A stretch of 46,593 nt of DNA, from positions 1 through 46,593 of the forward strand of contig MU006039.1 of NCBI GenBank assembly GCA_010093745.1, read 5' to 3'. Numbering within the stretch: the first letter of the stretch is position 1; each line of letters begins with the position of its first letter. This stretch comes from Piedraia hortae CBS 480.64 (taxonomy: Eukaryota). Below the pieces are notes generated by a model. The model ran no database searches, was not told where the DNA came from, and was given only the letters and a program-made list of their open reading frames with translations. A program made the position numbers and the translations under genes. Below are positions 3,082 to 46,593 of the stretch, piece after piece.

Positions 3082-4392
3082 ATGTTCAGCACCGTCAACA
3101 CTCTCACCCTCGTCTCTGGTCTTCTAAGCTCGGCTGGTCCAGCTCTTGGTCATTCCTGGATCGACGAGTTCCAGGTCATCGGCCCCAACGGCAGCTACAC
3201 CGGCGATCGCGGCTTTGCTCGTGGGTATGTTGCACGCACCGACCCCTCCTTTAACGGCTTCTCAGTGAACTACCAGGTGCCATCTGATGAATCCGGCCGC
3301 ATCCGGATCAACTCATCGGACCTCCTCTGCCACCCCTCTCAGCGTGCTTCCAACTACACAAACCCTAGCTACCCAATGCTGCAGGTCCAGCCAGGCAGCC
3401 ACGTAGCCATGAAGTACCTGGAGAACGGCCACGTCACCCTGCCCTGGAACCAGCTCGGCAAGCCAAAGGCCGGCGGCACCGTTTTCGTCTATGGCACCAC
3501 TCAGCCGTCTGAATCTGAAAAGATGGTCGACGTTCTTCGATGGACTAAAGACGGCAAAGGCGGCAACGGCCGTGGCTTTTTGATGGCCGCTCAGGCCTAC
3601 GACGATGGTAGGTGCCATCAGCTCAACTGCGGAAACGTCTCCCTCGCCCGCCAGGTCCTCTATCCCAACCACGTTCCGGGCCAGCCCACCTCAAGCCTGG
3701 AGCAGTGGTGCGAGAGCAACGTCCACATCCCCGCATCTCAGCCAGAGGGCAGGTTGACAGTTTATTGGGTCTGGCAGTGGCCCACGGAGCCGAACGCTGA
3801 CTGCACCTATCCGGGTGGCAAGGATGAGTACTACACCACCTGTGCTGACTTCAACGTTGTGAACTCTGTTCCTCGGCCAGCATCCTCGCACACTCTTGCA
3901 CAGGAGAACCCGCAAACAGCAGCGGTGAGCAATTTCCGCAGCCGCACAGCTTACACTACTTCGCCAACCATCGTCACGATGAGCGGGAGCAAGACAATCA
4001 ATGCCCCCTCCGCTGGTGCAACGCAGGATGGTGCTTGTACAAATCCCAACCCAGCTCCTGTGCCTGCTTCGTGTGATCCTGTGACCGTCTTCGACGGTGC
4101 AGCTTACACTTCTGCCTTGGAGGTCAACAAGCAGCTTGCGGGCTTGACACAGAGTCTCAGCGCTGCTACGACGCATGCTACATCTGCAGCTACGATGAGT
4201 TATGTTAGCGCCTCTGCAACGTGTGGAGCGTCCATGGTAAGTTCTGCGACCCCTGTAGTGACAGCAACGAGCTCTGAAAACTCGACCGAGTTCCAGACTA
4301 TCATGACGGTTGGACCGGCCATTCTTACGACGACATCGTACGCCTTTAGCGTCACAATGGCAGCTGGGGCACATCCTCGCGATTTTCACTAG
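3082..4392 (+). CDS. Secreted His1 (His-brace) LPMO-like protein of an uncharacterised fungal family (DUF7492-like), with Ser/Thr-rich tail, 436 aa; gene B copy 1
   Basis: Signal peptide MFSTVNTLTLVSGLLSSAGPALG then HSW; motifs KYLENGHVT, WCE, VYWVWQWP, EYYTTCADF; TATA-like TTATAA about 100 bp upstream. True start is likely ATG 3082, not 2791. Confidence 0.8.
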   Translation: MFSTVNTLTLVSGLLSSAGPALGHSWIDEFQVIGPNGSYTGDRGFARGYVARTDPSFNGFSVNYQVPSDESGRIRINSSDLLCHPSQRASNYTNPSYPMLQVQPGSHVAMKYLENGHVTLPWNQLGKPKAGGTVFVYGTTQPSESEKMVDVLRWTKDGKGGNGRGFLMAAQAYDDGRCHQLNCGNVSLARQVLYPNHVPGQPTSSLEQWCESNVHIPASQPEGRLTVYWVWQWPTEPNADCTYPGGKDEYYTTCADFNVVNSVPRPASSHTLAQENPQTAAVSNFRSRTAYTTSPTIVTMSGSKTINAPSAGATQDGACTNPNPAPVPASCDPVTVFDGAAYTSALEVNKQLAGLTQSLSAATTHATSAATMSYVSASATCGASMVSSATPVVTATSSENSTEFQTIMTVGPAILTTTSYAFSVTMAAGAHPRDFH

Positions 4393-4704
4393 CGAGACTG
4401 AAGGATAGATAGTTTTTTTGAGAAGATGATTGACAAATTTTTTTTACACGCTCTTGCGTCCCTTTTCCATTGTTTCATTCTGGATTTTGTATGCTCGGGA
4501 CCAATCGAAGGGAATAAATCATGCCCGTAGATCGGAAAAGCTACTTTCATCTGAGCTAGATAATTGCCGTATATATCCTTCCTGCTACATAAGCCCTCCT
4601 CACGGCTAAATTGTCATTCTCGGAATTATGTAGACTTTTCCTCACAAACGCGGAACTCACCCTCCTTGCGCTCCCGGGCCCTCTTGGCCGTCTCCACCTT
4701 GGCC

Positions 4705-5479
4705 TCATGATACTGGCGAACAATCTCCACATTTTTGTTGGGAGGGGAATGCCTCTTCAGCAGAGCGGCTTTCCTCCATGTCAACCGTGACCTGCCCAGG
4801 AATACCTCGCTTCGCCAGAACATCCTCGAACGCATCTTGCTGGGAGGAGGAAGTCTCTTCTGCAAAGCGACTCTCCTTTATATCAATCATGACTTGTGCG
4901 GGAATACCCCGCTCCTCCACCTTCACCTCAGTCCGCAGGGTGGAAGGTGCCGGAGAAGCGCTGGGGGGTACGGAACCTGTACCTCGCGTTAGTGACCTTT
5001 TACCCTTCTATATCAAGGACAGCACGTACTTAAATATGCGGTATGATTGACTCTCGTTGGTTTGGAGCCTGTACCTCGCATTAGCAGCCATTCTCGTCGC
5101 CTTCATCAGGGTTTGCACGTACTTAAATAAGCGCTATGGTTGATTATGCTAGCATAGTTGCTCGGTGCAGAGCCTGTACCTCGCATTAGTAGCCATATTT
5201 TTACATAAGAGGTCTCACATACTTAGATACGCGCTGTGATTGACTAAACTTGATGTAGAACCTGTACCCGTCAGTAACTCTTTCTTGCCGCCTGCATGGA
5301 AAGGTGCACATGCTTGGATATGCACTATGATTGACTACGCTGGGCGCAATACTCAAGTATGCGCTATGATTAAGTATCTTCGGCGCAGAATCTGAAGATG
5401 TGCTATGGTTAATTATGACTGGCGCAGAAAAAGCGTCCGCGACAAAGAGTGCTATAGCACCAGCAAGAATCAACTGCAT
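4705..5479 (-). CDS. Secreted repeat protein C encoded with symmetric micro-exons (188 aa as assembled)
   Basis: Exons 5479-5314, 5261-5223, 5173-5123, 5068-5030, 4976-4705. Four phase-1 introns of 49-54 bp with CTRAY branch sites and shared GGTACAG acceptors. The spliced frame stays open. Signal peptide MQLILAGAIALFVADAFSAP, six NH[S/T] repeats, two RGIPxQV..ESR.AEE repeats. Confidence 0.8.
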
Positions 5480-5534
5480 TGTGAATTTTGATATTATAAG
5501 AGCTGATGGAAAAGTTTTGCGTGTGCGAGAGAGT

Positions 5535-5538
<4 letters not shown>

Positions 5539-5565
<27 letters not shown>
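5539..5565. repeat. (TG)13 microsatellite upstream of gene C
   Basis: Perfect TG dinucleotide run about 60 bp upstream of the ATG at 5479. Confidence 0.95.
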
Positions 5566-5570
<5 letters not shown>

Positions 5571-6171
5571 GGACTAGTGGCTGGAACTGAATTTTCGTCC
5601 TTGGCTAGGGGAGAGACTTTACCGAATGTGTGAATTAGAGTTGACAACTCGCGATGATCTTTACTGAGAGAGGAAGTTAAGCACGTAGCCAGCGGGGCTG
5701 ACAGCTGTCAGCTGACAGGTCATTTGTTCTCGAGATGACGTTGCAACAGCAGACATGCCTCGTAGCGGAAACCTGTTTTCGGGTGAAATCATAGGAAATG
5801 CGGTTTGTAAATGCTTACATGCTCATTGGCAGCGAGGCTGCAGCCGACAAGAAATTTTCACAAGTGCAATCTGTCATCCAGACCTTTACCTGATCAGTCT
5901 TTGATGCCAGAAGCTCAAGTCCACCTAGCGAGGGGGATAAGAAGGTATGTCACATCGCAGCAGTATTAGTGCCTGACCCACTTCCCTTTTGCTGGTCAGT
6001 CTATACTGAGATGCATGGCAAACATTTCCTTCGTCAGTTCAACAGAAACATTTCATAAAGCCTACCGTGCCGCCTCTACCTCTACCCACCTCCTTTCCTT
6101 CCTTCTCATTCGAAAGCCCCAAGAACCATAGGAACACTTCAACACCGAACACCAGCCAAAAAGCGAAAATT

Positions 6172-6825
6172 CTACTTCGGAATCGGCACAGCGCCCTTCT
6201 CCCTCTCCTTCTTTTCTTCCTCCTCGTCTACGTCATCGGGGGTGATGCCCTTGTGGAGCGCGTGTTCCTTGAGAGGGCTGTGCGGGGTAGTTGGATGTGC
6301 GGCCGAAGGCGTAGACGTCGTATTCGCAGCGCCGGCGCTGTTACCAGCCGGAGTGAGCAAAGAAGAGATCGAAGTGGGCGGAGACCCGATCAGGTGCGGA
6401 GACTGCTGACCCGGTGAGAGGTGAGGAATCGTATCAGGCCTGTGATTTAGTCTTGTTAGCAAAAACCCAGCAATAGGAAGGAATCTGCCGTCCAACTCAA
6501 AGGAGTCTGCCTCGGTAGAATGTATGCCCTTCACCAGCGCCCCAAATCAAGCCTAGACCATCTCCACAGCCCCATCCAGAATCAGAAAGAAAGAGGGCAA
6601 TACATACGAAGGATGCTCCCTGCCCAGTCCACCGGAAACCGCATCCGATTTCCCCGCCTTAGACATTGCATAGTCGCCCGAATCAAAGTACTTGCGCTCC
6701 TTCAGCTTATTCTGCAGCAGGTCCTGGCGGTTAGGGAGCTTGCCGTATAGGCGGAAAAGCTTCGCCTCCTCCTCCGAGAGCGACGAAATGTCGACTTTGT
6801 TCTTCTGATGAGGATTGACTGCCAT
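6172..6825 (-). CDS. IGO1: Endosulfine/ARPP19 family phosphoprotein (Igo1-like)
   Basis: LYGKLP and RKYFDSGDYAMSKAG signature. Intron 6607-6440 (GTATGT...GCTAAC...CAG) joins exon 2 PDTIPH... to the stop at 6172. Confidence 0.9.
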
Positions 6826-7442
6826 TCTTGCGATCGCGGTGGCGTTAGCGTTAGGCGTTAGGGAAGCCCTATTTTTGCTGAATGGTAGGGGCAATTCAAA
6901 GGCAGGAAGTCTTTGCGCTAGAGTGGTCTCGCGTGGACTGTGAGAAAAAAAAGCCAAGGAGGGGTGAGGTTCGGCGTTGGTTGATCTGGTGATCAGTTTC
7001 GCACGTGACTGTGGGGTTGGAAACAACCATCAAGTAGGGGTGGGGGGCGTCACTTGACAGGCTGTGTGTAGCTGTGTGTGGCGCTGACGTTAGGGCAACA
7101 AACTCGGGGTTGAATATGACATCAACGGCACAATGAGATAGAGGTGCAGTTGAAAAAAAAGATTTCCTTCCGTATATTACATCGCCTTGAGGTTGGAGTC
7201 GAACAGATTGAATCTGACAAGCTGAAGACCAGTGCCAATGCAATGAACAAATAAGATCAATTTGAGCCGATTTGTACACTTGTGTTCCCGAGGGTAACTC
7301 CTTCAAATACGAATGCTCTTTGGTCGATTCGTATATATCTGCAACTGAACCTCCAGTGTCTCGCAGCGTTGTAGATAGCAAACTTCCCACCTCATTCCCA
7401 TCCCAGCCAGTCCCATTCGCCTGTTCCTTTATAACATGTCCA

Positions 7443-18194: not shown

Positions 18195-19579
18195 TGTTGC
18201 CGTGGGGTGCTTCAATCGACTTGAGTACTGTAATGAAAACCACCGACTTGACATACTGCACGGCATGTGGATAGTGAAGAGATTAGGGGCGCTGAGTCGA
18301 AGACTGCATGAGCAGTGAATTTCCTCTTACATCTCCCTAACTATCGTGCAGTTTCTCTATAAAAGAATGTTTCTGATCGGCAAACACATAGCCAAAGGCC
18401 TCAGCCAAACACCACAACAACGCCGCAGACAATCACCTCCAAAAAGATTTTTTACGACTGGATACATTGGTAGGAAACTATTTTCAACATCTTGTGTCTA
18501 CACTGTATCACCACGATGTCCATATTGGTGGCACGTCGAAACGTGACATCAACGCTCTTGCTTTTCTTTCCCTTCCGCTGTTTCTCAATCTATTATTCTG
18601 ATTCAAGGTATTCTATAGTGAGGGCGTTGCTGAGAGGACTCTGTGAGCATGTCCGTAACACAAAAAGAGTCTCGACGAAAGGGTGCATGCATTTTGAAGC
18701 CTTTCGTTGGAATGGAGCCTTTTGCCAGGAGCATATGATACCATACCCGTTTCCAAAAGTTTCGCCCAGAAAGATATTTCGGCTATGATACGATTCATGT
18801 GCGAAGGTGCGATGTGGCGAGTGTGCTCCCGAGATCAAATGTCAAGTCGTCTGTCAGCCACACTGATAGGTGACGAGGTCCTCGAGGTATCTTTAACTGC
18901 CCACTTATTGGCATTCTAGTCGGCAAAACTCTTCGCAGTAAGGTGACACTATCCAGCCTATTCAGTAATTAAAGTAGTCTCTAAGCGGCGATGGGTACTC
19001 GTAAAACCCAATTCCAGACACCAGTGCTTTTTGCATGCACATATACACGCAAAACACTCTCACACGTAAAATTTTCCATCCAGCAATAGCAATCTCACAT
19101 CCACAATGCAGCTGGTCCTTACTTGTGCCTTGACACTCTTGTGGGCGCTTGCTCTGCGTTGACCATGGTCAATCATAGCAGGTATTAAAGTACTTGCAAA
19201 ATCATATGTAGACAGCATAAATAGGGACTCTGATGTGAAGCATAGGCTCAGTGATTCCCACCGCCGCAGGGCCGCTTTCAACCCTGCAGAGTGACAAGCC
19301 ACTACTGCACGAAAGCCTGTTGGATTCAAGCATCGCCACTAGCGCGTATGCGGGGCACTTGCATAGCAAGTCAGCGATACCTCCTACACTACCAGCTGCA
19401 CCCTAGGTTTTTCCCTCACAGAGGTTTTCCCTCAGGGTCATGTCATATGTGACAAGGTGAATGCGCCCTGCTTGTGTACGACGTGACGTCACCGGCCCAC
19501 CGGTACAGAATTTTCATTCTGACGTCCCCTCATAGAGATAGATAGTCATTCACACTGTCGTATCGACACTGGTATTGAC

Positions 19580-19900
19580 TCATATACATCTACATCCGTC
19601 TTGTCCCTGATTTCGTCTATCGCTCTGTCCTCTTCGGGTCGCTGTGCACCATCACCCACGGGAGCCCAAATCTCTACAAAGCCCACTTGTCCAACTTCGG
19701 TGGTGGTGAACAACACTCACCACTGTAATGACCTTACCATACTCCGCAAATATCATGAGTTCAAAGTGGAGGAGGCCAGCCGTGCGCGCGAACGGGAGAA
19801 GGGTGAAATTCACGATGATTTGAAGAGGTCTACGTGATCTCCGGGATAGCAATTCTCCCCACGATATTTATCCGTGAGAGGAAGTCTTCTCTAGTAGAAT
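19580..19900 (+). pseudogene. Decayed paralog of secreted gene C (no ATG, no micro-exon repeats)
   Basis: Signal-like VLSLISSIALSSSGRCAP; ILRKYHEFKVEEASRAREREKG matches IVRQYHEAKVETAKRARERKEG at 4660-4725 (minus). Confidence 0.55.
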
Positions 19901-46514: not shown

Positions 46515-46593
46515 TGTTGTGAATATGCGGTATATTACGCGCATTATTAGTAACCGTCGCTCGGCTCTCGACTTCACGCGTCAACTAGTTTTC
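46515..46593. mobile_element. Start of a second copy of the terminal LTR-like element (truncated by the window end)
   Basis: 79/79 identity to positions 1-79. Confidence 0.8.

Follow-up and report, generated by a model that had tools for sequence, protein, structure and literature searches.

A transcribed five-exon gene with symmetric micro-exons in a Dothideomycete fungus, and its probable product, a small secreted repeat protein

Described systems closest to the locus

Micro-exon genes (MEGs) of Schistosoma carry symmetric micro-exons of 3-81 nt and introns of up to 5 kb, as stated in the available text of bioRxiv 10.1101/2023.06.21.545858. The pipeline published for Kex2-processed repeat proteins (KEPs) requires, in the accessible part of PMC6339444, three or more repeated motifs with KR/RR (or KK) sites between them, which yields at least four fragments. 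As for intron gain in Dothideomycetes, within-gene tandem duplication makes up less than 1% of the single intron gains of Zymoseptoria tritici, according to the available part of PMC4457414. Finally, the excerpt at hand of PMC4617103 deals with fungal repeat-containing secreted proteins and effectors, which are small, leader-bearing, lineage-specific, of low complexity, composed of short tandem repeats and devoid of a Pfam domain.

The gene reported here lies in a window of 46,593 nt, by which we mean the whole stretch of DNA that was analysed. It is read on the minus strand and three of its five exons are micro-exons. Its best-fitting class is that of the repeat-containing small secreted fungal proteins, whose traits, as far as the excerpt of PMC4617103 lists them, it shares, the leader being a prediction. 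The unusual twist is that each later repeat forms its own micro-exon, with an intron that would have been duplicated along with it.

An analogy with the Schistosoma MEGs had been put forward in a sequence-only reading of this DNA. The two have in common a leader-bearing first exon, symmetric micro-exons that fall within 3-81 nt, and a secreted product, leader and secretion being predictions in our case. However, the introns measure 52, 49, 54 and 53 nt here as against the lengths of up to 5 kb given in the available MEG text, and micro-exons supply only 129 of the 567 coding nt (23% of the CDS), whereas the coding sequence of a MEG consists mostly of micro-exons. Moreover, the two have no sequence relationship and belong to different kingdoms, and the contigs of public run X1 show an all-exon form for the fungal gene. 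The analogy is thus not supported beyond part of the general layout.

With KEPs and precursors of the alpha-factor type, as far as PMC6339444 presents them in its accessible part, the gene shares a leader, predicted here, then sequons that precede the repeats, and a repeat placed directly after KR. On the other hand, its RGIP repeats number two and its KR sites one, RR being absent, which is fewer than the KEP pipeline asks for, and it has no Ste13-type dipeptides. The resemblance to the intron gains treated in the available part of PMC4457414 concerns the fungal class, which is the same, and sister introns with near-identical 3' parts. Unlike the introner-like elements of that study, the copies found in the window are confined to one gene and its relic, and they stand alongside homologous exons. 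The exon and intron array would be an example of the within-gene duplication route that the same text reports as rare in this related fungus, the introns having multiplied by being copied with a repeat unit. Our searches of the literature on fungal micro-exon genes and on tandem exon duplication in fungi found no such gene described. The locus could serve as a small test case for the joint growth of repeat proteins and introns, and it offers a concrete search pattern to annotators of Dothideomycete genomes.

Gene model, transcript and growth of the repeat array

Reading of the window, together with a splice-site script, gave a gene on the minus strand that runs from the ATG at 5479 to the TGA at 4705-4707, with four introns removed. 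Its features are as follows.

5480-5524, minus strand: 5' leader, covered by transcript; no ATG in 5480-5565
5479-5314, minus strand: exon 1, 166 nt; ATG, predicted leader peptide (aa 1-18, 5426-5479) and, free of introns, three NHS units of 39 nt
5313-5262, minus strand: intron 1, 52 nt, phase 1, GC..AG, with a branch-like CTGAC; skipped in the transcript contig
5261-5223, minus strand: micro-exon 2, 39 nt, unit STSSLVNHSAYL
5222-5174, minus strand: intron 2, 49 nt, phase 1, GT..AG; 49 nt skipped in the contig
5173-5123, minus strand: micro-exon 3, 51 nt, a unit with a 12-nt insert
5122-5069, minus strand: intron 3, 54 nt, phase 1, GT..AG; 54 nt skipped in the contig
5068-5030, minus strand: micro-exon 4, 39 nt, the NHT-bearing unit
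5029-4977, minus strand: intron 4, 53 nt, phase 1, GT..AG; 53 nt skipped in the contig
4976-4705, minus strand: coding part of exon 5, 272 nt; Ser/Pro-rich linker, two acidic RGIP repeats, KR site and TGA at 4705-4707
About 4810-4911 and 4738-4809, minus strand: RGIP repeats of exon 5, found as an 83-nt repeat of 75% identity
4807-4812, minus strand: KR site of exon 5, aa 154-155, the single one in the protein
4593-4704, minus strand: transcribed 3' region, contig coverage reaching at least 4593

The ATG stands in a good context, and a TG/CA repeat (5535-5565) lies upstream of the 5' leader. Once spliced, the coding sequence comprises 567 nt and 188 aa, with zero internal stops and four phase-1 introns. 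The script returned the donors A/GCATGT, A/GTATGT and A/GTACGT (twice) and four ..GGTACAG/ acceptors, the slash marking the splice site. The 3' ends common to the introns read CTAATGCGAGGTACAG (twice), CTAACGCGAGGTACAG and CTGACGGGTACAG. Every donor follows an A and every acceptor precedes G[TC], so that any pairing of donor and acceptor yields a Ser codon. These results bear out the sequence-only reading, which had described a signal-peptide-like exon and, behind it, micro-exons (39, 51 and 39 bp) between phase-1 introns of 49-54 bp, shared intron 3' ends, NHS units, two RGIP repeats and a KR site; each was found at the positions given. It had also stated rightly that no listed ORF captures the gene, the plain ORF list carrying fragments only (5201..5647, 148 aa; 4705..4926, 73 aa). 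On the other hand, it had overlooked the GC donor of intron 1, the three intron-less 39-nt units of exon 1, and the overlap of the last nine codons of the spliced ORF with a conserved tail that belongs to another frame. A gene verified by a transcript can thus escape ordinary ORF tracks.

We aligned the contigs of run X1, the one public run found to contain this stretch, over 4300-5900. A contig of 765 nt (depth 127) matches 4593-5524 with 0 mismatches and 0 indels, in the pieces 4593-4974, 5028-5067, 5122-5172, 5222-5260 and 5313-5524. It skips 53, 54, 49 and 52 nt, which are the four predicted introns given a leeway of 1-2 nt at the joints; at intron 1, the 52 skipped nt with a leeway of 1 nt allow GC..AG on the minus strand. 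Past the 5' leader, the contig goes on for 41 nt within the (CA)n repeat. Run X1 is not declared in its record to be RNA, and we infer the nature of the material from the spliced contig itself: because the exact removal of four canonical introns marks mRNA, an mRNA of the five-exon gene exists. Altogether, the gene is genuine, and the Dothideomycete fungus transcribes and splices it; the four junctions expected from the sequence, whose absence from spliced reads would have spoken against the gene, are all found in one contig. This 765-nt contig is the sole assembled transcript of the gene and contains every exon; such contigs show neither transcript ends, nor expression level, nor rare isoforms.

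Repeat finding gave six 39-nt units, three of them in exon 1 at spacings of 39 and 39 nt and the later ones each separated by an intron. The four exon and intron units can be aligned over their full length with a mean column identity of 72%; neighbouring units are homologous in the exon as well as in the intron and all are of phase 1, as in tandem duplication of an exon with its intron. The last ~21 nt of introns 2-4 (4977-4997, 5069-5089 and 5174-5194) are 78-96% identical, and the synonymous sites of the adjoining exons are saturated. The identity of these 3' ends exceeds what a branch point and AG consensus comprise.

An origin of the introns as duplicated exon sequence was ruled out, since they lack similarity to the exon units: in none of the 24 pairs did intron and exon unit align above shuffles (best z 0.86). 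Nor did the introns fold with unusual stability (z from -0.20 to 1.30). An intron profile search of the 46.6-kb window recovered the four introns and a weak match at 19190-19240 (nhmmer E 0.061), which lies in a paralogue described below; within the window, no introner-like copies were found outside the gene and this relic. The claim that repeat number grew by exon and intron duplication, already made from the sequence, is thus supported by units that align throughout and introns unlike the exon units.

The simplest history that these alignments suggest is that the gene had a 39-nt coding repeat, that one unit carried a phase-1 intron at its 3' edge, and that unit and intron were then copied together. 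Tandem duplication of the 39-nt unit would have enlarged the array, and copying of the intron-bearing unit would have left three symmetric micro-exons and four sister introns. Alternatively, the first units could have lost their introns.

The predicted product, its paralogue and the rival readings

We give a probability of roughly 0.6 to the reading that the five-exon gene encodes a lineage-specific small secreted repeat protein grown by exon and intron duplication, secretion and glycosylation being predicted from the sequence. The product would open with an 18-aa hydrophobic leader directing it into the ER. Kyte-Doolittle hydropathy reaches its maximum of 2.95 at aa 3, with a peak over aa 3-13, while windows of 19 residues further on stay at or below 0.64; the N-terminus is hence the sole hydrophobic stretch, and A-F-S (A-x-S) stands ahead of the predicted cut. 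The next ~80 residues would form six units of 13-17 aa with the pattern S-S-A-P-x-x-[VIL]-N-H-[ST]-A-Y-L, their cores being INHSTSSD, LNHSAYLS, VNHSAYPS, VNHSAYLS, INHSAYLS and VNHTAYLS. They carry six N-x-S/T sequons at regular intervals (aa 24, 37, 50, 63, 80 and 93), all candidates for N-glycosylation. The linkers, rich in Ser, Thr and Pro (25 Ser, 6 Thr and 10 Pro in residues 19-118), could be O-mannosylated, which would make this region a disordered, glycan-covered stalk. After the stalk come two acidic 34-aa repeats of the type RGIPxQV..ESRxAEE, the second following LAKR, a possible Kex2 site; residues 119-188 contain 15 acidic and 7 basic residues. We assume here that signal-peptide cleavage occurs after A-F-S, that oligosaccharyltransferase uses the sequons, that O-mannosylation takes place and that Kex2 cuts at KR. 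With such a layout of leader, six sequons and an acidic C-terminal part bearing one KR site, secretion of the 188-aa product and N-glycosylation of the six predicted sequons both appear likely. AlphaFold2, run on the exon-5 peptide alone, gave an uninformative model (pLDDT 58, pTM 0.25).

A degenerate NH[S/T]AY DNA pattern has 6 matches in the window, five of them inside the gene, against 0.01 expected, and an RGIP DNA pattern has 2 matches against 0.09 expected, an excess that chance does not explain. The repeats themselves appear to be constrained as protein. All six sequons are kept, in unit 6 by an S to T change, and unit 1 retains only I-N-H-S, which suggests that the unit motif has the sequon at its core. 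Over the eight-codon NHS motif of units 2-6, pS is 0.90 and pN 0.085; over the seven whole codons of the same units, the reading frame gives pS 0.83 and pN 0.10 and the other two frames give pS 0.10-0.13 and pN 0.23, values that come from very short and non-independent repeat comparisons with saturated synonymous sites. Differences between units 2-6 number 13, 8 and 31 at codon positions 1, 2 and 3, and the two RGIP repeats have pS 0.59 versus pN 0.21, in the reading frame only and subject to the same limits. Because the differences fall mainly at third codon positions, selection at the protein level is indicated for the NHS units as well as for the RGIP repeats: the amino-acid motifs would have been held by purifying selection while silent sites became saturated. 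This argument for conservation draws on the repeats inside the gene and on one decayed paralogue. A short N-glycosylation-type motif would thus have been kept by selection despite saturated synonymous sites.

The same layout raises the question of whether the protein could be a precursor. The glycosylated NHS region would then be a pro-region like that of alpha-factor, and Kex2 cleavage after LAKR, perhaps also after EER, would free one or two acidic peptides of ~33 aa. The order of leader, six sequons and repeats starting right after KR or ER suits this idea, as does purifying selection on the RGIP repeats, and the KEP literature, in the part of PMC6339444 at hand, describes such peptide production. 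However, the protein has a single dibasic site, its first repeat being preceded by E-R, and it falls short of the KEP definition in that text, under which KR/RR/KK sites separate three repeats or more. Moreover, the KR is not followed by X-A or X-P dipeptides, and the neighbouring genes in the window include no maturation enzymes. We regard a precursor as rather unlikely.

The surroundings of the gene bear on a second alternative. The segment 2418-4147 (plus strand) is repeated in inverted orientation at 21953-20218, with 95.9% identity over 1747 nt, and the two copies harbour two DUF7492 genes (Pfam E about 1e-93 each) whose predicted mature N-terminus would start with His. A full-text literature search on DUF7492 found no paper. 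The flanks of this duplication are far more diverged, at about 60-80% identity, which suggests that gene conversion may have homogenised the core of an older inverted duplication that includes the micro-exon gene and a paralogue, here called B. The features concerned are the following.

19107-19837, plus strand: decayed paralogue B, next to the second DUF7492 copy and in mirror position to the micro-exon gene
4626-4736, minus strand: charged tail of the micro-exon gene, 36 codons and TAA in the +1 frame relative to the spliced ORF (codons 4629-4736)

Paralogue B and the out-of-frame conserved tail are both new with respect to what had been read from the sequence before. Paralogue B retains a homologous leader with its ATG and signal peptide, but it is damaged: a 4-nt deletion brings in TGA at codon 19, the one VNHS unit that it has closes with TAA, and the other repeats are absent. 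It also contains the intron-like relic at 19190-19240 and a 104-codon open frame (19523-19837), which ends in the tail shared with the micro-exon gene. This frame follows an intron-like phase-1 3' end (CTGAC..TCATAG), the 5' exons being disabled. Paralogue B may still be expressed from another start.

The tail and its counterpart in paralogue B share the sequence ..YHE.KVE.A.RARER..GE...ST and are identical at 16 of 28 positions by BLASTP (E 2e-9). The exon-5 spliced frame gave no BLASTP alignment with paralogue B. In the +1 frame only, the tail has pS 0.68 versus pN 0.30, and the stops of both copies are at the same place. The tail of paralogue B is read without a break from the frame that precedes it. 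The ancestral protein probably ended in this charged tail, to judge from the two copies, and the frame of the micro-exon gene was probably broken at or near the A5 run at 4732-4736. An assembly error is improbable because the transcript contig carries the same sequence as the window, and an ordinary indel is the likely cause. Since the conserved tail lies beyond the frame break, the C-terminal ..KCGDCSPVS of the spliced protein is probably a by-product of the frameshift, and the expressed allele may be a truncated or decaying form. Locating the break through an alignment of RGIP repeats 1 and 2 was tried and discarded, MAFFT placing an ambiguous 8-nt gap.

One could accordingly ask whether the whole locus is in decay, both duplicates being damaged (B at its 5' end, the micro-exon gene by a frameshift before its tail) and an mRNA being made for a product devoid of function. 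The lesions of paralogue B and the tail common to both copies in the +1 frame of the micro-exon gene are compatible with such a fate, and so is the failure to find a relative in the large protein sets searched. Against it stand 179 codons of constrained frame, four intact pairs of intron splice sites and a correctly spliced mRNA that is expressed; besides, losing a 35-aa tail need not destroy function. We hold the loss of function of the product to be unlikely, and the reading as a small secreted repeat protein accommodates these facts as an old inverted duplication whose sister copy decayed and whose charged tail here came to lie out of frame.

The sequence-only reading had gone further and envisaged a variable surface or effector protein diversified by alternative splicing. 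In a MEG-like scheme, symmetric micro-exons would be skipped in combinations, yielding secreted proteins with differing numbers of glycosylated units. The three internal exons are indeed multiples of 3 between phase-1 introns with splice sites that give Ser in any pairing, and the almost identical 3' 21 nt of introns 2-4 could allow exchange of donors and acceptors. However, this symmetry follows automatically from the copying of one phase-1 unit, and it is hence no evidence for a skipping mechanism. The lone assembled transcript has every exon, although contigs drop rare forms. Fungal introns of 49-54 nt are recognised by intron definition, for which the usual alternative is retention and not exon skipping, and their shortness therefore counts against skipping, as does the small share of micro-exons in the coding sequence. 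Neither diversification by splicing nor an effector role finds support in these observations, and we regard the MEG-like scheme as very unlikely. There is a slimmer chance still for a fungal counterpart of the micro-exon genes in which exon skipping sets the number of N-glycosylated NHSAYLS units and a +1 shift at the overlapping stop adds the tail to a fraction of the products; if true, one locus would give rise to a graded family of secreted glycoproteins.

As to recoding in itself, a +1 ribosomal shift on the A-run, or on UCA UGA G in the manner of antizyme, that would append the charged tail to some of the protein is extremely improbable: the stop of the spliced ORF does fall among the tail's best-conserved codons (TAT CAT GAG overlaps TCA TGA G) and transcript and genome have the same sequence, but no known shift signal was recognised and the continuity of the tail with the upstream frame in paralogue B makes an ordinary indel sufficient.

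Homologue searches, host and neighbouring sequence

The exon-5 peptide, compared with 1.84 billion representative proteins, found no true relative. The single match, P0001, a His/Ser-rich repeat protein of 1672 aa aligned in 13 stretches, was rejected as a low-complexity repeat artefact. A word-based protein search with the exon-1 and exon-5 peptides in the 'longer' length range gave no match, and two scans of metagenome contigs gave 595 pattern matches each, 0 of which were confirmed. No Pfam family reached its cut-off, the top one being Virulence_fact (E 0.036, 14.9 bits versus a cut-off of 25); the best E value among PDB sequences was 0.35, and the two Rfam matches over 4300-5900 were both far under gathering scores. 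Exact look-up of eight ORF translations derived from the window in a large protein collection found none present.

The neighbouring genes are ordinary eukaryotic ones and encode Rad52, MetRS, a MutL homologue, condensin, endosulfine, AIM24 and APP1. No other protein exceeds 78% identity to the MetRS frame, whose best named matches (73-75%) lie in Baudoinia, Zasmidium, Hortaea, Meristemomyces and Acrodontium, which argues for a Mycosphaerellales-like Dothideomycete as the host, one that would have no close sequenced relative in the protein collection used.

Beyond the (CA)n repeat, at 5586, begins a second X1 contig (703 nt, depth 1048), which leaves the examined stretch (4300-5900) upstream in the direction of the endosulfine-family gene (6553-7029, minus strand). 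This contig may represent a long 3' UTR of that gene or a separate abundant transcript. Near the contig start, at 176-1090, lies a copia-type reverse transcriptase fragment (RVT_2, E 3.5e-14). The window ends, 1-79 and 46515-46593, are identical and form a direct repeat; as the window appears to be a whole contig, they are suggestive of an overlap left by assembly or of a repeat present at each end of the contig.
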